64,000 nt of DNA. It comes from a virus. Its lineage: Duplodnaviria; Caudoviricetes. A model generated the notes under the pieces. It was not told the DNA's origin. It did not search any database and saw only the letters and a list, made by a program, of their open reading frames with translations. Location: the IMG/VR virus record IMGVR_UViG_3300029305_003246, positions 71,414 to 135,413 of that record. One strand, written 5' to 3'. Numbering within the stretch: position 1 is the stretch's first letter; the number at the start of each line of letters is the position of its first letter. Positions 15,603 through 34,764 of the stretch are shown piece after piece. A program made the position numbers and the translations under genes.

Positions 15603-16462
15603 ATGGATAAAAAATATATGCTTGAACTTGATTTGGTTGTAGGTTTATTCAATCCTAAAATGCGATTCAACCAAGGCGATAAAGATACTTCGGATTTTTA
15701 TATAAAACTTACTAAAAATGGTGAAGTTATTGAAAATCTAAATAGAGCTATGGTCACTTTAGTAGCAATCAAACCCGACAAATCGGTTGAGGCTCAATTT
15801 ATTGAGGTAAATAATGGCTTAATATATGCCGATTTAAAACGTTGTATGAGAGACCAAGTTGGTATCTATAGAGCTAGAGCGATGATAATCGTTGAAGGTG
15901 AATCTATAATGACGGATATGATAAAATATCAAGTAGATGACGATGGTTATATAGATGACCCAGATGATAATGTTAATGATAGTATTGCTTTAGGTAAACT
16001 AGAAGAACTTCTTAAAAAGATAGAAGCGATAGAAACTTCGTCTAAAGAACGTTTAGAGTTGTTTGATTCTCAATTAGATTTACTTAATACACGCCAAGAC
16101 TTATTCGACGAACGTTTATCTATGCTTAATGATAAAGTAAACAATCTAAAGCCAGGAACAGGCTCAAGTGGAAGTTCTCATACACATTCTAATAAACATG
16201 TATTAGACCAAATTACTCAAGAACTTATAGATGCCATTGGTTCTGCTCAAGTTGATTTAAGTGCTTATCAAACGAAGCGAGATACTAAGTTAGCAACTGA
16301 CGATAAATCGATAGTCGGTGCTATAAATGAAGTTTATAAGAGGTTAGATGATTATATAAATCGCTCTTATGATTCTGAAAGCGAAGAATTAATGATTTCT
16401 GAATTTAGCGAGTTAATATATAATCCAGACGACGAAAGTCTAGAGATAGGAGGTCTTAATTA

Positions 16463-16463
<1 letters not shown>
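15603..16463 (+). CDS. BppU-like N-terminal domain fibre/baseplate-upper protein
   Basis: FNQGDKDT…LVAIKPD…QVG.Y N-terminus; coiled coil; HTHSNK and ATDDKSIVGAINE fibre motifs. Confidence 0.65.
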
Positions 16464-17710
<1,247 letters not shown>

Positions 17711-20522: not shown

Positions 20523-20774
20523 GTGGTTGGATTTGAAAATCTAAATACATTCAAACATTTTGTTGAAAAGTTGAAAGATATTTTAGCGACTATCTCTTAT
20601 GTTAACGAGTTAGATGCTAAAAATCTAAAAACAGGAAATTATAATTCTCTAAACACTTCTAATAAAACAGTTATTGGTTCAATAAATGAAGTAAATTCGT
20701 TTTTACAAGTAGACTACAATGATTTAATGCAAGATATTAATGAAATTGGAGCATCATTGCCAGATAATAGTTAG
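20523..20774 (+). CDS. short fibre connector protein
   Basis: LNTSNKTVIGSINE motif; C-terminal VDYxxL..DIN motif shared with ORF 56371. Confidence 0.6.
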   Translation: MVGFENLNTFKHFVEKLKDILATISYVNELDAKNLKTGNYNSLNTSNKTVIGSINEVNSFLQVDYNDLMQDINEIGASLPDNS

Positions 20775-20816: not shown

Positions 20817-22319
20817 ATGGCAAACTTAAATGATGTATTACAAGGTCTAGTCAACTTGAACTCCAAGATGGCAAATAATATAAATAGCATGTTAGATAGT
20901 ATTGGTGAAGGTTTCCTTGATGTTGGGGAAATATCTTTTAATGGCAATACTGTAACATTGTCAAATGCAGTAGTTCTTGTAAATGGTTCAAATAAACAAG
21001 TTCCAAATCTATCTGCAACATTTACGGGCAATCAAATATGCTTTTTAGAGTTTAAAGCCAATAAGAGTTTCGCTTTAAAATTAGTAAATGTTACTGATGC
21101 GAATTTCAATTATAATTCTTCATCATTAACATCTACATCCAAACATTTCGCAGTAGCACGCCGTTATGGTAGTGTTATTGAAGATGTTAGAGTTATTGGA
21201 ATGGTGTCTGATGATAAGACTATAGTAGGAGCTTTAAATGGAGCATTAAAAGCTATCGATTTAGATAATAGTGCAGATTTAGAGCTTAACTTAGATGCAT
21301 TATCTAGAATATCTGCATTAGAAACTAACAAAGTCGATAGAACTTATGTAACTAACTATGTTAGTACAGCAATAAAAGATAAAATAGAAAAGTCTTATGT
21401 TGATGATAATTTTGTATCTAAAACTGATAATAATTTCGTATCTAAAACTGATAATAATTTAGCAACTACTGATAAGACTATAGTAGGTGCGATTAATGAG
21501 GTTTTTCAACGTGGCAATAATGTGAAACAATTGTTAGTAGACGCATTAATTGCCAAAGATGTTACAGCATCTACTGACGAAAGTTTCGAAAGTTTAATAG
21601 GTAAAATTAGTGAAATCCAAGGTGGTTCAGGAGGTACTCCTATAACAAGTTATGCGACGATAACCGTAAATTCATCTGATTTAGTTCTAAATGGTGATTA
21701 CTATTACTACTCAATAGAATCTTTTGATTGGGATAATATAACTCTTATTTTAGCCGATGTTAAAGCAATTGATGACGATATAGGATTTACTCAATATTAT
21801 ACCAATATATTATATCCACCAGAAAGATTTGCAGGGAAATATACATTCTTTGTAGGAAATTTTAATGGTAATGGAGGAACAAGTGTTTATGAGGGTTCAA
21901 GTTGGGATTCAATACCAATAATGAAATCAACAGATAACTTTAGTAATGGGACTCTAACTATTTTTTACAAAGCAGGAACAGTTTCAAATTCTCGTGGTCT
22001 AACTTCACTTAGTCAAGAAACCACTCAATATCGTTCTGTTGATTACAATACTATTGATTTAAATTCTATACCAGGTAAATTTGATTATATTATATTTGAT
22101 TTTTATGCTCATACAGTCGATGCCGACGGATGTAATATGACTGTAATATATGATTGTAACTCCAAGAAATGTTGTTACATGATTCGAGGGTATTATAAGT
22201 ATTGCTATCAATTTGATAATGTACCTTCCAATTTAATTCCTATATTACGTTCAGATTTATCTTCAATAGAGCAGGTTTATTATACAGGTTTCATTGCAAA
22301 TAATGGTACGATTGGATAG
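20817..22319 (+). CDS. tail fibre/RBP 1 (stalk + unknown C-terminal head); contains -1 frameshift cassette
   Basis: KTIVGA(L/I)N repeats; NEVFQRGNNVKQLLVDALIAK motif; aromatic-rich C-terminal domains. Confidence 0.7.
   Translation: MANLNDVLQGLVNLNSKMANNINSMLDSIGEGFLDVGEISFNGNTVTLSNAVVLVNGSNKQVPNLSATFTGNQICFLEFKANKSFALKLVNVTDANFNYNSSSLTSTSKHFAVARRYGSVIEDVRVIGMVSDDKTIVGALNGALKAIDLDNSADLELNLDALSRISALETNKVDRTYVTNYVSTAIKDKIEKSYVDDNFVSKTDNNFVSKTDNNLATTDKTIVGAINEVFQRGNNVKQLLVDALIAKDVTASTDESFESLIGKISEIQGGSGGTPITSYATITVNSSDLVLNGDYYYYSIESFDWDNITLILADVKAIDDDIGFTQYYTNILYPPERFAGKYTFFVGNFNGNGGTSVYEGSSWDSIPIMKSTDNFSNGTLTIFYKAGTVSNSRGLTSLSQETTQYRSVDYNTIDLNSIPGKFDYIIFDFYAHTVDADGCNMTVIYDCNSKKCCYMIRGYYKYCYQFDNVPSNLIPILRSDLSSIEQVYYTGFIANNGTIG
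21500..21578 (+). other. candidate -1 ribosomal frameshift signal, type A pseudoknot
   Basis: G_GTT_TTT 21500-06; spacer CAACGT; S1 GGCAATAATGTG(21513-24)/CGCATT-A-ATTGCC(21542-54); S2 GTTAGTAGA(21533-41)/TCTACTGAC(21570-78); -1 stop TAA 21518-20. Confidence 0.75.
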
Positions 22320-22337
22320 TATTAAATAATATATCAA

Positions 22338-22364
22338 AAGGGAGGAGAAATTTCTCCCTTTATT
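22338..22364 (+). terminator. intrinsic terminator
   Basis: AAGGGAG…CTCCCTT then TATT. Confidence 0.55.
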
Positions 22365-22386
22365 CTTAAAAAGAGGTGATAATTAA

Positions 22387-25300
22387 ATGGCAAAGCCAAA
22401 GTTTATACAAGAAAATGGTGAAACTATTATACCAATTACGCATGAAGATGCCGTACTTGATAATAATGGTCAAAGTATCTCATCTAAATATGTACAAAGA
22501 GAAGATTCATCTTTAATGACTACATCTAAAAATGTAGTTGATGCTATAAATGAATTATCTATGGAATCTGTCACTACTGAGTCTTATACTAACGGTGATG
22601 ATATCCAAATAGAACAAATAGATTATTCTGATGTTATAGATGATGTAACTTCTTTACAAACTGATGTAGGTGATTTAAGTTCTTTACAAACTAAAGATAA
22701 ATCGAATTTAGTCGGTGCATTAAACGAGCTTTTTCAAGATGTCGATAGTGGAAAACAACTCATAGCCGACGCTATCGACGATGAGAATATTACTAAAAAT
22801 TCTACATTTAGTGCTATGAGTGAGGCAATAACAAATATAAAACAGTCAGCAGGCTCAGGTTCCCCTACTGATGGAAGATTGGCTCTTTATTATGAGATGA
22901 TAGATAAGGGATACGTTGAAGCTAATGAAACTATGTCTATTAATGAGTTAGTTAATTTACTTGAAGAATGTGACTTTGACCCTAATGAAGTTAAACAAAT
23001 TTTTAGTGGTGACCAACATACATTCCTTATAAAAAATGACGGAAGTTTATGGGCATGTGGATATAACAGTTATGGTCAGTTAGGGCTAGGTACTACTTCT
23101 ACTAAATACACATTTACTCAAGTTACTGAAAACATAAACAACGATGTTGAACGAGTATTTTGTTTTTCCAGTCATACATTCATTTTAAAAACTGATGGTA
23201 CATTATGGGCTAGTGGTTGGAATTCACATGGTCAATTAGGATTAGGTGATAATACAAATAGGAATACTTTCACTAAAGTTGAAGGTATGGACTCTAATGT
23301 TAAGGAAGTTGTTTGTGGGTCAACTTATACATTCCTTATAAAAAATGACGGAAGTTTATGGGCAACTGGGGGTAACAGTTATGGATATTTAGGATTAGGG
23401 GATACTACTAATAGAAATACATTCACTAAAGTAACTACTAATATAAATAACGACGTGAAACAAGCAACTTTTGGGGGTGGTCATGCATTTATAGTGAAGA
23501 CTGATGGAAGTTTATGGGGTTGTGGTCTTAATAATGTTGGACAATTAGGGTTAAATGATGCTACTAATAGAACTACATTCACTAAAGTAACTACTAATAT
23601 AAATAACGACGTGAAACAAGTAGTTTGTGGAGATAGACATACTGTTATATTAAAAAATGATGGCAGTGTATGGAGTAGTGGTAGAAATGCATATGGAAGT
23701 TTAGGGCTAGGTGATACTTCTAATAGAACTACATTCACTCAAGCAGTAAATAATGTTAAACAAATATCTTGTCATTGTTATACGACAGTAATACAAAGAA
23801 ATGACGGAACTTTATGGGCTTGTGGTTATAATGATTATGGGCAATTTGGTATAAGCGATACTGATTATAAGACTACTTTCATTCAAATTGCTCAGGATAT
23901 AGGTACTAATATTAGAGAGGTAATAGTAGGTTATCGTACCACTTTTATTATTATGAACGATGGTACGATATATGCAGCAGGTTATAATTATTATGGACAA
24001 CTAGGGTTAGATCCAAACACTGAACGATATAAGACATTCACCATTACATTACCACTTGATACTTCTCCAGAGTATCAAGATAAATTAAAGGTATATCAAT
24101 TCTTAAAAAGTGCTATAGGTTTACCAGTTAGAGGTTCAATGTCTATTGAAGAACTGTTGGAAATTCTAATAGATAAAGGAGACCAGCTTGAAGATGTTTT
24201 AGTTGATGTTAAAGATACTTTAATTAATCTAATGCAAGATAATAACCATATTATTACTGATGAAAGTCTTGATAGTCTATTAGATTTATTGAAAAAAAGT
24301 AATATTGATATTGGTGGTATTAAACAAATAGCTTGTGGTAGTTATCATGCAGTTGTATTAAAAAATGACGGAAGTGTATGGACTACAGGTTATAATAATA
24401 GGGGTCAATTAGGAGTAGGTGATACTAGTAATAGGACTACATTCACCAAAGTAACAACTAATATAAACAATGACGTAAAACAAATAGCTTGTGGTAATCA
24501 ACATACATTCATCCTAAAGAATGATGATAGTGTATGGTCTTGTGGTTATAATGTTAGTGGACAATTAGGATTAGGTAATATTCCTAATCAAACTACATTT
24601 GCTCAAGTAACTACAAATATAAATAATGATGTTAAACAAATAGCTTGTGGTAATAATTCTGCAATTATATTAAAAAAGGACGGAAGTATATGGTCTTGTG
24701 GTTATAACAGTTATGGGCAGTTAGGACTAAATGATACTTCTAATAGAGCCTCATTTACCCAAGTAACTACAAACATAAATAATGACGTTAAACAAGTATT
24801 TTGTGGTTATAATCATACATTTATTCTAAAGAATGACGGAAGTTTATGGGCTAGTGGTTATAATAATTATGGTCAACTAGGATTAGGCGATACTACTAAT
24901 AGAACTACATTCACTCAAGTAACTACTAATATAAATAACGATGTTAAACAAGTAGCTAATGGTCAGTTTCATACATTAATATTAAAGAACGATGGTAGTT
25001 TATGGAGTTGTGGTCAAAATGATTATGGACAATTAGGATTAAATGATACTACTACTAATAGAACTACATTTACTCAAGTTATAAATAATGCTAAACAAAT
25101 CGCTTGTGGTGAATATTATACAATTATATTAAAGAATGATGATAGTGTATGGTCTTGTGGTGTGAATGATTATGGTCAATTAGGACTAGGCGATACTACT
25201 CAAAGAACTTCATTCACCAAAGTAACTACAAATATAAGCAATATAAAACAAATAGCTTGTGGTTATTATCATGTATTTATAATAAAGAATGATGGTAGTA

Positions 25301-25392
25301 TATGGGGTTGTGGTTTAAATGACGAAGGTCAATCAGGATTTGGTGATTATAGTAATAGAAAAACATTTACCCAAGTACCAAGGGGATTCTAA
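22387..25392 (+). CDS. RBP 2: stalk + two RCC1/BLIP-II beta-propeller regions; contains -1 frameshift cassette
   Basis: About 14 repeats of KQIACG..HT.ILKNDGSLW.CG.N.YGQLGLGD. Confidence 0.85.
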   Translation: MAKPKFIQENGETIIPITHEDAVLDNNGQSISSKYVQREDSSLMTTSKNVVDAINELSMESVTTESYTNGDDIQIEQIDYSDVIDDVTSLQTDVGDLSSLQTKDKSNLVGALNELFQDVDSGKQLIADAIDDENITKNSTFSAMSEAITNIKQSAGSGSPTDGRLALYYEMIDKGYVEANETMSINELVNLLEECDFDPNEVKQIFSGDQHTFLIKNDGSLWACGYNSYGQLGLGTTSTKYTFTQVTENINNDVERVFCFSSHTFILKTDGTLWASGWNSHGQLGLGDNTNRNTFTKVEGMDSNVKEVVCGSTYTFLIKNDGSLWATGGNSYGYLGLGDTTNRNTFTKVTTNINNDVKQATFGGGHAFIVKTDGSLWGCGLNNVGQLGLNDATNRTTFTKVTTNINNDVKQVVCGDRHTVILKNDGSVWSSGRNAYGSLGLGDTSNRTTFTQAVNNVKQISCHCYTTVIQRNDGTLWACGYNDYGQFGISDTDYKTTFIQIAQDIGTNIREVIVGYRTTFIIMNDGTIYAAGYNYYGQLGLDPNTERYKTFTITLPLDTSPEYQDKLKVYQFLKSAIGLPVRGSMSIEELLEILIDKGDQLEDVLVDVKDTLINLMQDNNHIITDESLDSLLDLLKKSNIDIGGIKQIACGSYHAVVLKNDGSVWTTGYNNRGQLGVGDTSNRTTFTKVTTNINNDVKQIACGNQHTFILKNDDSVWSCGYNVSGQLGLGNIPNQTTFAQVTTNINNDVKQIACGNNSAIILKKDGSIWSCGYNSYGQLGLNDTSNRASFTQVTTNINNDVKQVFCGYNHTFILKNDGSLWASGYNNYGQLGLGDTTNRTTFTQVTTNINNDVKQVANGQFHTLILKNDGSLWSCGQNDYGQLGLNDTTTNRTTFTQVINNAKQIACGEYYTIILKNDDSVWSCGVNDYGQLGLGDTTQRTSFTKVTTNISNIKQIACGYYHVFIIKNDGSIWGCGLNDEGQSGFGDYSNRKTFTQVPRGF
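22728..22821 (+). other. candidate -1 ribosomal frameshift signal, type B pseudoknot
   Basis: G_CTT_TTT 22728-34; spacer CAAGAT; S1 GTCGATAGTG(22741-50)/CGCTATCGAC(22770-79); S2 ACTCATAGC(22758-66)/GCTATGAGT(22813-21); -1 stop TAG 22746-48. Confidence 0.75.
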
Positions 25393-25409
25393 TAAATAAT
25401 CTTATATTC

Positions 25410-25443
25410 AAAGGAGGAGTTCAAAACTTCTCCTTTTAACGTT
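25410..25443 (+). promoter_or_regulatory. terminator hairpin fused with GTTCA-N16-CGTT promoter
   Basis: AAGGAGGAGTT-caa-AACTTCTCCTT+TT; GTTCA 25419-23, CGTT 25440-43. Confidence 0.7.
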
Positions 25444-25473
25444 CTAAATTCTGAAAGGATGTGATTTATTAAT

Positions 25474-27906
25474 ATGGCTAAAATAAAAAAAGTGCAAAAG
25501 AACGGCGAGGATATATATTTAGTTACTCATGAAAATGCAGTACTAGATAGTGATGGAAACACTGTTGGTGAAAAATTATCCGATATATCTAATATAATCG
25601 GTGATACTTCTCAATTACAAACAAATGGAAAATCTATAGTAGAAGCGATGAATGAGGTTTTTCAATGTGGCAATAATGCGAAGAAGGAGTTAGTAGACGC
25701 ATTAGTTGCCAAAGGTGTTTCAGCATCTACTGACAATACTTGGAAAGAGGTTACAAATTCAGTCAAAGATTTACCTTCTAAAATGTTTAGACCTTATGTT
25801 ACAGGTGACCATACTTTGTTCCTTGTTGGTGATGAAGTTTGGTCTTGTGGTGATAACGGTTATGGTCAACTAGGATTAGGGGATACTACTGATAGAACTA
25901 CATTTTGCAAAGTTGATTTTAAAGATGTCTATCAAGTAGCATGTGCATATGCATATAGTGTTATAGTTAGAAAAGATGGTACATTATGGGGATGTGGGCA
26001 TAATACTTATGGCCAGTTAGGTTTACCAAAAGGGTCTGCTAATCCTAATGTATTTACTAGACTTGGAAACATATCTAATATAGATAGAGTTTTTTGTGGA
26101 TATTATCATATGTTTGTTCTTAAAAAAGATAATACTGTATGGGTTACAGGTAGAAATACTGATGGGCAATTAGGTATAGGAACTAAAACTGACCAATTTG
26201 GATTTGTACAAAACACAGATTTAATAGCATCTGATATAAAGAAAATAGAATTCACAGGTTTTGCATCTTTCGTATTAAAAAAAGATGGTACATTATGGGG
26301 ATGTGGTGATAACGCATATTCACTTCTTAATATGCCATCTGATTCGACTCCACATACTACTTTTATTCAAATAGCATCTGATGTTGATGATGTATGGGCA
26401 GGGAGTGACCATTGTTTTCTAAGAAAAACAGATAATACTATATGGAGTTGGGGTAGAAATGATGAAGGACAACTAGGTTTCCCCGAGTATGATACTTCGA
26501 CTTCATCTGCATATACTATGCAGCAACTTCAATCCATTGATTTTTCTAAAATAAAAACTGTATTCCTTTCTAATGATACTTCTTTCCTACTTCAAACTGA
26601 CGGTGTTTTATTAGCTTGTGGTCATAACTATTATGGTAGTTATGGTAGTGGAAACTCTAGTGAAGTTAAAGAATTCACACAAGTTCAATCTGATATTGCA
26701 GAATTATTTGGTGATACATCCTCACAAGGTTTATTTGGATTAAAAACTGATGGAAAATATTATATTTGGGGATATAATGGTTACAGTCAACTTGGAAATG
26801 GGTTAACATCTACTATTTATACACCTGTTGCTCATCCAGATTTATCTTTCGATGCAGGTTATACAGCATTAAAGAATAAATTAAGTATGATGTATGACGT
26901 ATCATCTGCTAGTACTGTAGAGGAACTTTCCGAGTTAATACAAATAGCACCTCCTTTAACTGACCTTTTCGGCAACACTTGTTTTACTAAATATATGCCA
27001 GTTCATGGTGCATCTTATGGCTTTACATTAGGTTCTGATGGATATTATTGTAGTACAAATAAAGCTATAAAGAGCTCTTCATCAGTTGGTCAAGTATTTG
27101 TTTACATTCCACCTTATCCACCTAATACATCAAATGTTATCTTATATTCTGTTTATTTAGATTGTATCTCTAATGGTGAGAATAACTACGACTTCGGTTT
27201 AATAGGTAAATTGAATGAAACTCTTACTTTAAACTCTACAGCTGATTCAAATGTCCTTAAATCTTTCAAAGGATTAGCAAGTACAAATGTTCAGTCTGTC
27301 CTTTTAGCAGAGTCAGTAGAGAGTGCAAATTTATCTGATGCTATAGTAGGGTCTTATTATGTTAAGTATAGAAAAGATGGTTCGAGCGATTCAAATGATG
27401 ACCATTTTAAATTCAAAATTAGAATTGTTGAAGGTATAGTTGGTTGTTGTTTCGATGCAGGTTCTCAAATATTATTAGCTAATGGTACTACTAAAAACAT
27501 TGAAGATATTGTCAAAGGTGATATAGTAATGTCTTTAAATGAAGCTACTAAAGAATTTGAGCCTAAGCCAGTTAAATCTTTAATAGTTAAAGAAAATTCT
27601 GATGACTTAGTATTTATACATTTATCTAATGGTACTAAGATAGGAATGAGAGCATATCATCCATTATTAACAGTTGATGGATGGAAATCACTTAGACCAG
27701 ACTTTGATGATGTTATTAAAGAAGTTGGAAATGTTGAGTTACTTAAAATTGGAGATGTTTTAGTAGGTTACGATGAAAACTTAGAGATTATCAATATCGA
27801 GTCTAGACCTTACGTTGAAAATTATACTACTTATAATCTAGACGTTGAAGATAATGATAACTATGTAGTAGAGGGCATTGTTGCACATAATGCAGCATGT
27901 AAATAA
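25474..27906 (+). CDS. RBP 3: stalk + RCC1 propeller + beta-sandwich + C-terminal Hint (intein-like) domain; contains -1 frameshift cassette
   Basis: RCC1 repeats; CFDAGSQILLANG…IEDIVKGDIVMS…YHPLL…TYNLDVEDNDNYVVEGIVAHN. Confidence 0.85.
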   Translation: MAKIKKVQKNGEDIYLVTHENAVLDSDGNTVGEKLSDISNIIGDTSQLQTNGKSIVEAMNEVFQCGNNAKKELVDALVAKGVSASTDNTWKEVTNSVKDLPSKMFRPYVTGDHTLFLVGDEVWSCGDNGYGQLGLGDTTDRTTFCKVDFKDVYQVACAYAYSVIVRKDGTLWGCGHNTYGQLGLPKGSANPNVFTRLGNISNIDRVFCGYYHMFVLKKDNTVWVTGRNTDGQLGIGTKTDQFGFVQNTDLIASDIKKIEFTGFASFVLKKDGTLWGCGDNAYSLLNMPSDSTPHTTFIQIASDVDDVWAGSDHCFLRKTDNTIWSWGRNDEGQLGFPEYDTSTSSAYTMQQLQSIDFSKIKTVFLSNDTSFLLQTDGVLLACGHNYYGSYGSGNSSEVKEFTQVQSDIAELFGDTSSQGLFGLKTDGKYYIWGYNGYSQLGNGLTSTIYTPVAHPDLSFDAGYTALKNKLSMMYDVSSASTVEELSELIQIAPPLTDLFGNTCFTKYMPVHGASYGFTLGSDGYYCSTNKAIKSSSSVGQVFVYIPPYPPNTSNVILYSVYLDCISNGENNYDFGLIGKLNETLTLNSTADSNVLKSFKGLASTNVQSVLLAESVESANLSDAIVGSYYVKYRKDGSSDSNDDHFKFKIRIVEGIVGCCFDAGSQILLANGTTKNIEDIVKGDIVMSLNEATKEFEPKPVKSLIVKENSDDLVFIHLSNGTKIGMRAYHPLLTVDGWKSLRPDFDDVIKEVGNVELLKIGDVLVGYDENLEIINIESRPYVENYTTYNLDVEDNDNYVVEGIVAHNAACK
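25656..25734 (+). other. candidate -1 ribosomal frameshift signal, type A pseudoknot
   Basis: G_GTT_TTT 25656-62; spacer CAATGT; S1 GGCAATAATGCG(25669-80)/CGCATT-A-GTTGCC(25698-710); S2 GTTAGTAGA(25689-97)/TCTACTGAC(25726-34); -1 stop TAA 25674-76. Confidence 0.75.
27448..27891 (+). other. Hint (intein-like/BIL) autoprocessing domain, about 148 aa
   Basis: Begins Cys-Phe, block-B His (RAYH), ends His-Asn; +1 residue is Ala; no homing endonuclease. Confidence 0.85.
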
Positions 27907-27916
27907 TATATATTCA

Positions 27917-27949
27917 AAGGAGGAGTTCAAACTTCTCCTTTTAAACGTT
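27917..27949 (+). promoter_or_regulatory. terminator hairpin fused with GTTCA-N16-CGTT promoter
   Basis: Near-identical to the 25410 element; GTTCA 27925-29, CGTT 27946-49. Confidence 0.7.
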
Positions 27950-27980
27950 TTAAAATTATGAAAGGATGTGATTTAACGGT

Positions 27981-30764
27981 ATGGCAGAAATAAAAATTCT
28001 GAAAGAAAATGGTAAGGATATTATACCAGTTACTCATGAAAAAGCAGTAGTTGACGATAATGGGGTTTCCTTAAAAAATAAATTAAAAGCATTAGAGGAT
28101 AATAAACTAGAACTAGTGAACGTTGATGGTACTGTTGATGATGTAAATGTTAAAGGCGAAGATGAGAGAATTGGTGAATTAGAAAATCTTCAAACTGAAA
28201 ATAAAGAATCTATTGTCGGTGCATTAAATGAACTTTTTCAAGATGTCGATAGTGGAAAACAACTCATAGCCGACGCTATCGACGACGAAAGCATTACGAA
28301 AGATTCAACATTTGGTGCTATGAGTGAGGCTATAACAAATATAAATTCTGAGTTATCTACTGTTAATGAAGAGTTATCTACTGTTAATGAAGAATTAACT
28401 TCTATTAATAATGAAATAAATAGTTCTATAAATAACTCACGTCAAGCTTTGACTAACTATGATATCAGCTATGATACAAATTCTTCATTTTCCGATTTAA
28501 ACCAATCTTTAATATTAGCAAATCAGCATGAAAATGGGATAAAAACGATAAAAGGTCACCATACAGCTTTTATGGTGAAAAAAGACGGTACAATTTGGGG
28601 TATGGGTTTTAATCAATCCTATCAGTTAGGTATAGGTAGTAACTACAATGCTATTGAGTGGACTAAATTACCTATTGATAATGTTAAAGATGTATTTTAT
28701 ACACTAGATAATACAATAGTATTAAAAAATGATAATACAATATGGGGTTGTGGAAAAAATCAATATGGTGAACTAGGTTTAGGACATAATAGGTATGTTT
28801 ATACTTTCACCAAGTTATATGATAATGTAGAAACTTTAAGTATGGGAGAAACTCATACTGTAATTAAGACTTTAGCAAATTCACTTTATTCCACTGGTCG
28901 AAATAATTCAGGTCAATTATGTCAAGGTGATACTACTGATAGAAATACTTTCACTCATATATCCACTAATGCATCTTTCACAAAACAAATAGCATGTTCT
29001 TCCTCTAATACTTATATACTGAAAGCAAATGGTGATGTTTATTCTGCAGGTGGTAATGCGTATTACCAATTAGCAACAGGTAGTACAGATACTTCATTAG
29101 TTCAAACTACTTTAACGAAAATCAGTTCTGTATCTAAAATCAGTTATATTGATTGTGGTGATAACCATGTTTGTGCATTAGACCATGTGGGCACTTTATA
29201 TACTGCAGGTGATAATACTTATGGCCAATTAGGTAGAACAGGAAATGCTCATACTTTTACAAGTGCACAAACTAAAATTAAAAAGGTTGTATGTGGAGCG
29301 TATCATACCGTTGCTCTTAATAGTAGCAATATTGTATTAACAGTTGGTGCGAATAGCAATGGTCAATTAGGTAATTCAAATACTACAGGTTCTTCTACAT
29401 TTATTAATACAGGGAAAAAAGCATTTGATATTTATGCATTAAAATATTCAACATTCTATTTAGGTGCTGATTGTAAATTATATGCTTGTGGAAAGAATAA
29501 TTATTATCAATTAGGATTTCTTATTTCAGGAGACCAAACTAGTTTTATAGATACTCAAATGTTACTGGATATAAAACCTTCCAATAATGTCTTAAAATCA
29601 AGTATAATATCAGCTTTAACGACGGCATCAATTCCATTTATGAATACTGAGTCTTTAACTAAGTTAGTTCGAAGAACTAAATCTTTCAAGAAGATTTGTG
29701 CTAAATATAACTCAACTGTTTTATTAGATTCATTTGGTACTCTTTGGGTATGTGGATTTAACCTTTATAATCAGTTAGCACTTGACCCATCTTATAAAGG
29801 CAATGAAGTATTTGGATTCCATCAATCAATCTCAGGTGTTAAAGATTTCTCATTCTCAGGTGATTCATTATATTTCCTTAAATATGATAATTCTCTTTGG
29901 GTATGTGGAAGATCAGTTTATGGTCAGTTAGGATTAGGTGATACAACTACTCAATACAGTCCAGTTCGTGCTAATGTTGGTAATATATCTAATATTAAAG
30001 AGGTAGCATGTGGCAAAGGTCATACTTTTATTATAACTGAAACAGGCAAGCTTTATGCATCAGGTAGTAACAGTAAGGGACAACTAGGATTAGGTGATAC
30101 TACTCAAAGAACTACATTCACTTATGTTTCATCTTATGCAAATTATGTCAGCAAAGTTGCTTGTGGGGACGATTTCTCTTTTATTTTACAAGGTGATGGT
30201 CAATTATATGCTTGTGGTAATAATCAGTATGGTCAATTAGGATTAGGTGATACTAATAATAGAAGTAATTTCACTAAAGTTACAAGTATGGGGTCTGATG
30301 TTCAAGATGTTTGTTGTGGTATGAATTATACTTACGTTAAAAAGAAAGATGGAACAATTTGGTGTTGTGGAAGCAACTCAGGTGGTCAGTTATGTCAAGG
30401 CGATACTACTAATAGAAATGTATTTACTAAGGTCAATGTATCATCTATTGATAGAGTTGTTTGTGGGGGATTATTTGTATTCTTTATAGGTACAGATAAG
30501 ACTCTAAAATGTTGTGGAAGTAACTATTTCGGCCAGTTAGGAGTTGGCTCTAGTGGTTCAAGTGCAACCAAAACATCTATAACATCTGTAACTAGTGTAA
30601 CTAATGTAATAGATGTTACAGCAGGTGATTATCATACTATCGTTTTAACTGATGGTGGAATATGTAAGAAATTATATGCTTGTGGAAATTATCAGTATGG
30701 TCAATTAGGGATATCAACATCTTCTGTTATACCGAATTTAACTGAAGTTAATATAATTTTTTAA
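27981..30764 (+). CDS. RBP 4: stalk + two RCC1 propeller regions; contains -1 frameshift cassette
   Basis: Multiple CG.N.YGQLG repeats; shared ENG..IIPVTHE.AV N-terminus. Confidence 0.85.
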   Translation: MAEIKILKENGKDIIPVTHEKAVVDDNGVSLKNKLKALEDNKLELVNVDGTVDDVNVKGEDERIGELENLQTENKESIVGALNELFQDVDSGKQLIADAIDDESITKDSTFGAMSEAITNINSELSTVNEELSTVNEELTSINNEINSSINNSRQALTNYDISYDTNSSFSDLNQSLILANQHENGIKTIKGHHTAFMVKKDGTIWGMGFNQSYQLGIGSNYNAIEWTKLPIDNVKDVFYTLDNTIVLKNDNTIWGCGKNQYGELGLGHNRYVYTFTKLYDNVETLSMGETHTVIKTLANSLYSTGRNNSGQLCQGDTTDRNTFTHISTNASFTKQIACSSSNTYILKANGDVYSAGGNAYYQLATGSTDTSLVQTTLTKISSVSKISYIDCGDNHVCALDHVGTLYTAGDNTYGQLGRTGNAHTFTSAQTKIKKVVCGAYHTVALNSSNIVLTVGANSNGQLGNSNTTGSSTFINTGKKAFDIYALKYSTFYLGADCKLYACGKNNYYQLGFLISGDQTSFIDTQMLLDIKPSNNVLKSSIISALTTASIPFMNTESLTKLVRRTKSFKKICAKYNSTVLLDSFGTLWVCGFNLYNQLALDPSYKGNEVFGFHQSISGVKDFSFSGDSLYFLKYDNSLWVCGRSVYGQLGLGDTTTQYSPVRANVGNISNIKEVACGKGHTFIITETGKLYASGSNSKGQLGLGDTTQRTTFTYVSSYANYVSKVACGDDFSFILQGDGQLYACGNNQYGQLGLGDTNNRSNFTKVTSMGSDVQDVCCGMNYTYVKKKDGTIWCCGSNSGGQLCQGDTTNRNVFTKVNVSSIDRVVCGGLFVFFIGTDKTLKCCGSNYFGQLGVGSSGSSATKTSITSVTSVTNVIDVTAGDYHTIVLTDGGICKKLYACGNYQYGQLGISTSSVIPNLTEVNIIF
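28232..28325 (+). other. candidate -1 ribosomal frameshift signal, type B pseudoknot
   Basis: A_CTT_TTT 28232-38; spacer CAAGAT; S1 GTCGATAGTG(28245-54)/CGCTATCGAC(28274-83); S2 ACTCATAGC(28262-70)/GCTATGAGT(28317-25); -1 stop TAG 28250-52. Confidence 0.75.
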
Positions 30765-33456: not shown

Positions 33457-34764
33457 ATGAATTTTGAAAGACTTGATGAAGCTAAAGAAACTAAAAAAGG
33501 TATTTTAGCATCATACAAAGCAACTTTTATGGAGTTTAATAAGGTTAATGAAAATAATAGAATTTATTCTAGCGATATAGCTAAAAATAGAATATTAACT
33601 AATGAAACTAAACAGGCCATAAAAGAAAATAAATTACTAGGTGAAATAAATCATCCAAAAGAGCGATTCGATGTTGATTATGAAAAAGTTTGCATAAATA
33701 CTACTTCGCTATACTATGATGAAGCAACTGATTCTTTAAAAGGGACTTTCGATATTCTAGATACTCCTATGGGTAGAATATTAAATACTTTAGTTGAGTA
33801 TGGAACTCATATTTCCTTATCGGCAAGAGCTATGGGTAAAACTAAAACAGGAAAAGGTGGAGTTAATGAAGTTATGGAAGATAGTTATATGTTTAAAACT
33901 TTCGACGCCGTAACAACTCCAGGATTCTCTATAGCTACAATAGACCCTTCTAAAGACTCTATTAATGAATCTTTATGCGATTTATACGAGTCTTTTACTG
34001 AAGATGAAAAGGCACAGGTATCGCCTTTATTAGAGTCTATTGGTATGCCAAAGGATTTTCTATATTCAAGCACAAGTCCTCAAGCTAATGAGGATAATGC
34101 TAATATAGATAGTGAACCAGTATCTGAAGATAAGTCAGATATGCAAAACTTAATAGCCGAATATGAAGCTATAATAGATATATTAAAAAGTCAACTTAAC
34201 GATAAGGATGCGAATATATCTGCTATGAAGGAAGAATATTCTGCTATAATTGACGTTTTACAAACTTCTAAAGAAAAAGAAGTTGATAAATTAAATACAT
34301 CTATCGATGAATATAAACATGCAATAGAAACTTATTCGTTATCTTTAAAAATGTCTAATGAAAAGATAACTTCTTTAACTTCTGAATTAAGCGAGTCTAG
34401 AAATAAAATAGATAAATTAGAATCTGAATTAAAAGTAGTTTACGAATCTTTTAATAACCGTTTAAATGAATTAACTACTGTTAATGAATCAATGTTAGGT
34501 GACGTTGAATTCTTCTCGTCTGAAGTAGTTAAGTCAAATGAAGATTATAACTCGCTATTAGAAGAATATAAGGTACTTGAGGCAAAATATACTAAAGCCT
34601 TAGAAGATTTGAAAAAAGATGAATTCAAACTTCAGTCAAATCTTATATCTGAAGGCGAGGCTAATCTAACACTTATAAATGTTATAACTGAATCAAAAGA
34701 GGTTGATAAACCAATTGATTCACTTACTTTAAATCTTTTAAATAAAATAAACAATAAAAATTAG
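33457..34764 (+). CDS. prohead core protease (T4 gp21-like) fused to coiled-coil scaffold
   Basis: NENNRIY, LGEINHP, ILDTPMGRIL, SLSARAMG, TFDAVTTPG; acidic coiled-coil C-terminal half. Confidence 0.88.
   Translation: MNFERLDEAKETKKGILASYKATFMEFNKVNENNRIYSSDIAKNRILTNETKQAIKENKLLGEINHPKERFDVDYEKVCINTTSLYYDEATDSLKGTFDILDTPMGRILNTLVEYGTHISLSARAMGKTKTGKGGVNEVMEDSYMFKTFDAVTTPGFSIATIDPSKDSINESLCDLYESFTEDEKAQVSPLLESIGMPKDFLYSSTSPQANEDNANIDSEPVSEDKSDMQNLIAEYEAIIDILKSQLNDKDANISAMKEEYSAIIDVLQTSKEKEVDKLNTSIDEYKHAIETYSLSLKMSNEKITSLTSELSESRNKIDKLESELKVVYESFNNRLNELTTVNESMLGDVEFFSSEVVKSNEDYNSLLEEYKVLEAKYTKALEDLKKDEFKLQSNLISEGEANLTLINVITESKEVDKPIDSLTLNLLNKINNKN

Follow-up and report, generated by a model that had tools for sequence, protein, structure and literature searches.

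The stretch analysed here (the window) comprises 64,000 nucleotides (nt), positions 71,414 to 135,413 of IMG/VR record IMGVR_UViG_3300029305_003246, a 135-kb phage record with terminal repeats present. Within it lies a cluster of fibre genes, four of which, RBP1 to RBP4, each hold a short coding segment that is probably a cassette for programmed −1 ribosomal frameshifting, of the shift-to-stop type known from dnaX, inside tail-fibre coding sequence. The segment takes two forms. Type A is represented by two 66-nt copies, at 21513-21578 in RBP1 and at 25669-25734 in RBP3, both in frame within tail-fibre-like open reading frames (ORFs) and both encoding the peptide AINEVFQ-x-GNN[VA]K..LVDAL[IV]AK.V.ASTD. 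A type-B version of this peptide, ALNELFQDVDSGKQLIADAIDDE, is found in the neighbour genes RBP2 (22387-25392) and RBP4 (27981-30764). The 18-nt pattern GARNTTTTTCARNNTGNC occurred four times in the 135-kb genome, each time in one of the four RBP genes, and its reversed control did not occur. The features of the four copies are as follows.

20817-22319, plus strand: RBP1 ORF, 500 amino acids (aa); holds type-A copy 1, peptide motif AINEVFQRGNNVKQLLVDALIAKDVTASTD
21500-21506, plus strand: RBP1 slippery heptamer G_GUU_UUU (0-frame GAG GTT TTT), the dicodon being fixed at synonymous sites in relatives
21507-21511, plus strand: RBP1 spacer CAACG, 5 nt
21512-21524, plus strand: RBP1 5' arm of stem S1, T plus GGCAAT AATGTG; holds the −1-frame stop TAA at 21518-21520
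21533-21541, plus strand: RBP1 5' arm of stem S2, GTTAGTAGA, the 3' part of the S1 loop
21542-21555, plus strand: RBP1 3' arm of S1, CGCATT-A(bulge)-ATTGCC plus A
21570-21578, plus strand: RBP1 3' arm of S2, TCTACTGAC
25474-27906, plus strand: RBP3 ORF, 810 aa, with RCC1 repeats and a C-terminal Hint domain; holds type-A copy 2
25656-25662, plus strand: RBP3 slippery heptamer G_GUU_UUU, followed by the spacer CAATG at 25663-25667
25668-25680, plus strand: RBP3 5' arm of S1, T plus GGCAAT AATGCG; −1-frame stop TAA at 25674-25676
25689-25697, plus strand: RBP3 5' arm of S2, GTTAGTAGA
25698-25711, plus strand: RBP3 3' arm of S1, CGCATT-A-GTTGCC plus A
25726-25734, plus strand: RBP3 3' arm of S2, TCTACTGAC
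22728-22821, plus strand: RBP2 type-B cassette, slip site G_CUU_UUU at 22728-22734, −1-frame stop TAG at 22746-22748
22740-22750 with 22770-22780 (S1) and 22758-22766 with 22813-22821 (S2), plus strand: RBP2 type-B stems
28232-28325, plus strand: RBP4 type-B cassette, slip site A_CUU_UUU at 28232-28238, −1-frame stop TAG at 28250-28252
28244-28254 with 28274-28284 (S1) and 28262-28270 with 28317-28325 (S2), plus strand: RBP4 type-B stems

A pseudoknot had been proposed for the type-A copies in a sequence-only reading of the window, and its description of them was accurate: S1, S2 and loops of 8 and 15 nt are present as quoted, and S2 (GTTAGTAGA/TCTACTGAC), identical in both copies, directly adjoins S1. 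The S1 stem measures about 13 base pairs (bp) with one bulge and the S2 stem 9 bp, the 5' arm of S2 abutting the 3' arm of S1. Loop 1 reads AAACAATT in RBP1 and AAGAAGGA in RBP3, 8 nt in each case, and loop 3 shortens from 15 to 14 nt if the closing pair T21512-A21555 (T25668-A25711 in RBP3) is added. With 8 and 14-15 nt, the loops should be sterically long enough to span pseudoknot stems. Nested folding of the two 66-mers gave −18.2 and −18.6 kcal/mol (z = −3.3 and −2.8 against dinucleotide shuffles), together with competing alternatives. None of the Rfam 15 families matched either type-A copy at E <= 1.

The same reading had taken the differences between the two copies as pairing-preserving substitutions. 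They do preserve the pairs; each is one-sided (G-U to G-C and U-A to U-G) and, taken alone, weak. Because the copies lie in frame, these differences are also amino-acid changes, V to A and I to V, and the equal loop lengths follow from a coding region free of insertions and deletions. Judged from the letters, the two-copy evidence is correct but not discriminating, and it is the homologues that decide. Two overlapping sets of these were used. Set 1 comprised 67 unique 105-nt cores, the four window copies included, obtained by scanning collections of viruses, genomes and metagenomes for the peptide pattern, and was represented by 43 lineages at less than 80% nucleotide identity. Set 2 comprised 62 unique sequences ascertained solely by the peptide downstream of the slip site. 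The union of the two sets held 109 unique sequences, whose contigs were of viral, prophage or metagenome origin.

With the protein alignment as anchor, S1 was present as a stem of 9-14 bp in nearly every homologue and in at least 14 different stem sequences, among them TGCCAGTAATGGT/GCTATTACTGGCA, GGCAGTGAGA/TCTTACTGCC, TGGAAGTAAC/GTTACTTCCA and TGTCGATAGTG/CGCTATCGACG. Its first base is the third position of the codon that follows Gln, and its last is the first A of the Lys codon in 'KG'. Compensation in S1 alters residues on both arms by way of exact reverse-complement codons: the codon pairs GGC/GCC, GCC/GGC, GTC/GAC, AAT/ATT, AGT/ACT, GTT/AAC, GGT/ACC and GAT/ATC place the amino-acid pairs G/A, A/G, V/D, N/I, S/T, V/N, G/T and D/I on the two arms. 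In 66 distinct sequences taken without selection, pairing in the outer 7 bp of S1 reached 88%, against 24-50% in slid registers, and one outer pair read GC in 25, CG in 18 and UA in 11 of them. Clades that were unpaired in the fixed register, type B included, formed the stem at a shift of one or two codons. Conservation was lowest in the inner half of the window's S1 (AATGYG/CGCATT and its bulged A), where relatives often have a contiguous register. The minimum free energy (MFE) of the motif window fell within the lowest 5% of windows of its own ORF in 79% of the 43 lineages, with a mean z of −2.26 relative to synonymous recoding of the same peptide.

In 23 type-A-like sequences S1 and S2 together were 85% paired, compared with 28-47% for slid partners; two-sided changes occurred at 15 of the 22 pairs, and none of 500 shuffles matched the observed values, a shuffle-based statistic of the kind that relatedness can inflate. 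S2 by itself was 90% paired in these sequences, which had been selected partly by their S2 score, with compensatory changes at 6 of its 9 pairs and the variants GTAGA/TCTAC, GTGGA/TCCAC, GCAGA/TCTGC, GTATC/GATAC and GCCGA/TCGGC. Given that selection, the unbiased check is a register-free duplex test of the S1 loop against the 45-48 nt downstream, which gave a mean z of −2.36 in set 1 (67% of sequences below −1.64) and of −2.30 in set 2 (53% below −1.64). The S2 stems of set 2 include ATCGCTAC/GTAGCGAT, TTGCAGATG/CATCTGCAA and ATCGCTGGG/CCCAGCGAT, with a loop 2 of 0-2 nt and a loop 3 mostly of 11-15 nt. Uncompensated stem mutations were looked for in these wider alignments and the opposite was found, and the frameshift-stimulator geometry ascribed earlier to the two copies is supported by the two-sided compensation in both stems among the relatives. 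By their covariation both S1 and S2 are under selection, and the two would presumably form simultaneously.

The codons at and around the slip site were far from the usage of the genes that contain them. At the motif GAG was present in 66/67 and GTT in 65/65 sequences, and the first arm codon was GGC, GCC or GTC in 42 of 43 representative lineages; in the same ORFs the background use of these codons is 20% for GAG, 40% for GTT, 9% for GGC, 8% for GCC and 5% for GTC. Between sequence pairs, codon identity amounted to 35-40% at the invariant upstream Ala and Ile and to 95-100% at Glu, Val and Phe. The free codon use at the invariant upstream residues therefore rules out recent transfer as the cause of the nucleotide identity, and with it pure protein constraint. 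Protein-level co-evolution was likewise rejected, on the combined evidence of the synonymous sites and the reverse-complement codons. Further copies of the peptide K.IVGAINE occur in the window at 16281-16335, 20662-20692, 21192-21246 and 22504-22558, upstream of or apart from the cassettes. Where the Glu codon is present in such cassette-free copies it is GAA and not GAG (three copies), and they are useful internal negative controls.

The relatives also kept the elements that a frameshift signal would be expected to have, namely a slippery dicodon in register, a 5-nt spacer and a −1-frame stop at codon 5. In set 1 the slip dicodon was GTT TTT or CTT TTT in 67/67 sequences. In set 2 the residues at this place vary (VF, LF, CF, TF, AF, LK, VK and AK), and the dicodon was NNT-TTT in 55 sequences and NNA-AAA/G in 6, the latter including three T_TTA_AAA and one T_TTA_AAG. 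Over the union, 108 of 109 sequences carried a slippery dicodon, as did all four window copies; an A-site codon permitting −1 re-pairing (U_UUU or A_AAA/G) was thus kept at synonymous sites and across residue changes. The sole sequence without a slip site, L199, is also without the usual GTC-type stem and the codon-5 stop. The base before the slip dicodon was G at all 76 GTT_TTT sites and T at all 4 TTA_AAR sites of the union, the match that P-site re-pairing predicts and would favour. The spacer between slip site and stem was 5 nt in the four window copies and in nearly all relatives, the codon alignment being ungapped, and the best stems started no more than 1 nt from the position given by a 5-nt spacer in 50/67 sequences of set 1 and 56/62 of set 2. 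The first −1-frame stop (TAA, TGA or TAG) fell exactly at codon 5 in 67/67 and 61/62 sequences of the two sets, a regularity partly confounded with the stem and amino-acid constraints. The position of the first +1-frame stop varied from codon 6 to codon 41.

The comparison of homologues shows selection on the structure, on the slip-site pattern, on the 5-nt spacer and on the −1 stop; slippage itself and its efficiency we infer from them. According to the proposed mechanism, GUU would occupy the P site and UUU the A site of G_GUU_UUU while the pseudoknot stem, 5 nt downstream, stands at the mRNA entry channel. A fraction of ribosomes would shift one base backwards, translate four codons in the −1 frame (S-T/M-W-Q in type A) and, in type A, terminate at the TAA within the 5' arm of S1. 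They would release a stub consisting of the N-terminal part without the receptor-binding part, and the remaining ribosomes would produce the full-length fibre. The predicted stubs measure 234 aa for RBP1, 120 aa for RBP2, 67 aa for RBP3 and 90 aa for RBP4, with STWQ, SRCR, SMWQ and SRCR, respectively, as the terminal −1 residues. Our guess is that the stub would set the ratio of anchor-only to full-length protein, either at shared baseplate sockets or in fibre assembly; equally as a guess, it might occupy or nucleate anchor positions and so set the fibre stoichiometry. Two ORFs of the window, 20523-20774 (83 aa) and 15603-16463 (286 aa), stop soon after the sequence K.[IV][IV]G[AS]INEV and have no slip site or stem; they resemble the predicted stubs in hard-wired form.

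The 65-aa module encoded by the cassette was modelled with AlphaFold as a helix-loop-helix with a pLDDT (predicted local distance difference test) of 86, in which the slip site falls within the first helix. Pfam and PDB searches with the peptide motif returned sub-threshold matches only. For the 65-aa module these comprised the Pfam family HTH_62, 'recombinase-like helix-turn-helix', in 21 of 43 members (best 1.1e-5), and a weak PDB match to a 'tail fiber protein' chain, 31he_AAA residues 304-345 (E 0.009).

Several observations weigh against frameshifting as the function of the cassette. The heptamers of the window, G_GUU_UUU and R_CUU_UUU, fail the canonical X_XXY_YYZ, and re-pairing in the P site would be imperfect or absent: at G_GUU_UUU the P-site tRNA would retain positions 1 and 3 only. 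The canonical T_TTA_AAA/G was present in only 4 of 109 relatives, and in Escherichia coli U-rich sites are less shift-prone than A_AAA_AAG (Atkins 2016, PMC5009743). The slip site falls mid-helix in the predicted fold instead of between domains. Bases of the stem also supply the −1 stop and the T/C/T wobble positions, so that these lines of evidence are not fully independent; the choice of the type-A clade by its S2 score has been mentioned above. The human-gut ASNGK clade is without S2, a 13-bp hairpin standing in its place, and the pseudoknot is therefore not universal. Finally, two tests of an RNA rather than a DNA function gave weak results. The sense strand was more stable than the antisense strand in 38 of 43 lineages, a largely compositional effect, since control windows of the same ORFs were also sense-biased (−1.9 as compared with −3.2 kcal/mol, p = 0.03), and the excess of G:U over A:C oppositions (28 against 10) was not significant given the column composition (p = 0.16). 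Strand asymmetry thus favours RNA weakly. With both the wobble and the strand test weak, the case for RNA over DNA rests mainly on the frame-linked features.

Those same features bear on the alternatives. An mRNA structure under selection for a role other than productive frameshifting, be it as a pause for co-translational folding or trimerisation of the N-terminal part or as a stability or processing element of the long late transcript, would produce structure and covariation equally well, and both the non-canonical slip site of most members and a truncation point inside a predicted helix would suit it. A pause or stability element needs no homopolymeric A-site codon with a matching preceding base, however, and it leaves unexplained the switch between U_UUU and A_AAA/G amid residue changes as well as the −1 stop at codon 5, and we regard it as unlikely. 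A +1 frameshift at UUU_C, with the GAGG just upstream as an internal Shine-Dalgarno sequence, would resemble prfB, in which the Shine-Dalgarno spacing is 3 nt. In Val-type sites the distance from GAGG to the UUU codon is 2 nt, which comes near that spacing, and GAG is kept in 66/67 sequences; but Leu-type and Lys-type sites have no GAGG, A_AAA/G sites before A, T or C bar the same +1 re-pairing, and the position of the +1-frame stop (codon 6-41) is not conserved. The structure would moreover begin 2 nt after the A-site codon, and there is no slow A-site codon, which makes such a shift highly improbable.

The position of the cassette between diverse N-terminal (39-468 aa) and C-terminal parts, like a module boundary, and the weakness of the wobble and strand-asymmetry tests would also fit a DNA element, that is, a hairpin or cruciform with a T-run at the junction of anchor and receptor-binding parts that promotes recombination or template switching of fibre modules. 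The stem sequences nevertheless differ between clades, so that recombination would have no common homology to work on; neither repeat partners, inverted or direct, nor a recombinase were tied to the sites; and an in-register slip dicodon with a −1 stop at codon 5 is meaningless for DNA. As the sense strand is, in addition, still somewhat more stable than the own-ORF controls predict, a DNA element appears quite improbable. Scarcely credible, to our mind, is the absence of any nucleic-acid function, with the pairing a by-product of a helix-loop-helix peptide, of codon bias and of shared ancestry. A conserved peptide motif with a predicted helix-loop-helix is indeed encoded and relatedness can inflate the shuffle-based statistics, yet the rare codons GGC, GCC, GTC and GAG are fixed next to invariant residues that are free in their codons, paired residue changes are exact reverse-complement codons, pairing falls to 28-47% in slid registers, and the MFE z of −2.26 was obtained against synonymous recoding. 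An intrinsic transcription terminator was considered and rejected: no U-tract follows the stems (in the type-A copies the sequence after S1 is AAAGRTGTT and that after S2 is GAAAGT or AATACT), and the T-run lies upstream of the hairpin.

The proposed −1 frameshift cassette has a wide distribution. Hosts named in the records of the homologues were Lachnospiraceae, Clostridium, Coprovivens, Paenibacillus and some metagenome-assembled genomes labelled Bacteroides. Cultured carriers include the Brevibacillus phages Davies and Abouo (gp30, tail fibre) and the C. tetani phage phiCT9441A (gp65), and C. difficile carriers include phiCD27 (gp29) and the 132-kb pCD1602_4. Matches at the motif were obtained by tblastn in the phiCD27-like phages phiCD505, CDKM9, CDKM15, phiMMP02, phiMMP03 and phiCDHM19; of this group it is the phiCD27 sequence that was read. 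Megablast and tblastn searches with the gene and with the 60-aa motif against cultured phages gave no match at default thresholds, the cultured carriers having been found with longer or relaxed queries, and no relative emerged when viral sequences were scanned with the type-B peptide. A covariance-model search, suggested in the sequence-only reading as a check, recovered the four window copies; it matched 2 of 151 Clostridia genomes and says little on prevalence because few candidates were scored. A fifth match in the window, 33865-33957, was attributed to chance (E 0.57). One jumbo-phage contig, IMGVR_UViG_3300013947_000019 (259,863 bp), contained two matches to the downstream peptide, L221 and L224, the first of which has a slip site of the A_AAA type and a very long pairing of loop and downstream sequence, at about −28 kcal/mol.

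The part of the protein that precedes the cassette varied from 39 to 468 aa among homologues (median 129), and both flanks are diverse. On balance we lean towards a portable module, in which helix, slip site and pseudoknot co-evolve, that may have spread through the fibre genes of Firmicutes phages and prophages and programme a fixed ratio of fibre to anchor-only stub. The range meant here covers tail-fibre and receptor-binding genes of Clostridia, Paenibacillus, Brevibacillus and human-gut phages.

Some neighbouring features of the fibre cluster deserve mention. RBP1 matched no Pfam or PHROG family. RBP2 to RBP4 are three consecutive genes (22387-30764) with a common N-terminus, MAK.K..QENGE.I.P.THE.AV.D..G, followed by long RCC1 arrays, in which Pfam marks as many as 14 RCC1 stretches; for a phage receptor-binding protein such an architecture is unusual. 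RBP3 ends, after its RCC1 propeller, in a Hint/intein-like domain at 27448-27906 (Pfam Intein_splicing 2.4e-10, PT-HINT, Hint), which suggests autoproteolytic processing at the C-terminus of this receptor-binding protein. Directly upstream of the cluster, 16463-17710 encodes a tail-fibre protein that has collagen (G-x-y) repeats and an Ig domain resembling Big_7.

No frameshift in tail-fibre genes was found in the literature consulted, which included the review of Atkins (2016, PMC5009743) and the PRFect paper (PMC10885494); a study of Paenibacillus and Brevibacillus phages mentions putative slippage only in a head gene of phage Emery (PMC4168068). The mechanism is known, and what appears to be unreported is the gene class, tail fibres, together with a widespread and co-evolving cassette. 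Recoding of the shift-to-stop kind would escape gene finding because a single intact ORF is present and no second one. Should the proposed −1 frameshift occur, a second, truncated receptor-binding product absent from annotation would be made by many phages of Clostridia and Bacilli, among them C. difficile and C. tetani phages studied for therapy or typing and abundant phages of the human gut. It would then add a level, not recognised before, to the control of fibre stoichiometry or assembly, with consequences for the way in which the baseplate acquires its fibres and for their number. It would also bear on the design of engineered fibres and tailocins, in which recoding of the junction would silently delete the signal. 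The cassette would further be an unusually clear case of RNA pairing that dictates how amino acids co-vary, the codons of one arm being reverse complements of those of the other.

Among known systems, the cassette resembles E. coli dnaX (tau/gamma) in having, within a long ORF, a slip site, a short spacer, a stem and, only a few codons on, a −1 stop, and the frameshift product, here a predicted one, is as in dnaX a C-terminally truncated form of the full protein (PMC5009743). It differs from dnaX in the slip site, which is A_AAA_AAG there and G_GUU_UUU or R_CUU_UUU (or A_AAA/G) here, in the distance to the stop, one codon there and four here, in the stimulator, a simple hairpin there and often an H-type pseudoknot here, and in the gene, which is a phage tail fibre. 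In dnaX an upstream Shine-Dalgarno stimulator lies about 10 nt before the slip site. No clear counterpart was seen here: GAGG abuts the U-run, in Val-type sites only, and the synonymous-site profile has no conserved Shine-Dalgarno-like block further upstream. For phages, Xu, Hendrix and Duda reportedly showed in 2004 that −1 frameshifting is conserved in a gene for tail morphogenesis among double-stranded DNA phages. As with the G/GT tail assembly chaperone of lambda, the outcome would be a set ratio of two proteins with a common N-terminus. The shift of G/GT extends into a second ORF, whereas here the −1 frame closes after four codons and the shifted product is therefore the shorter one; moreover, the lambda gene encodes a chaperone and the gene in question here a fibre or receptor-binding protein.

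The pseudoknot itself can be compared with those of the coronavirus infectious bronchitis virus (IBV) type, which have an S1 of 11-13 bp, an S2 stacked on it nearly without linker, a long loop 3 and a spacer of 5-8 nt. The predicted structure shares with them the long S1, the S2 stacked with little or no linker, a loop 3 that should suffice to cross S1, and a spacer within that range; frameshift pseudoknots are described in general terms in PMC5009743. It differs in acting, as proposed, on bacterial ribosomes, in its non-canonical heptamer, and in the bulged S1 and 8-nt loop 1 of the window copies. Unlike the IBV type, furthermore, the whole structure lies in coding sequence, in which the amino acids co-vary with the pairing.

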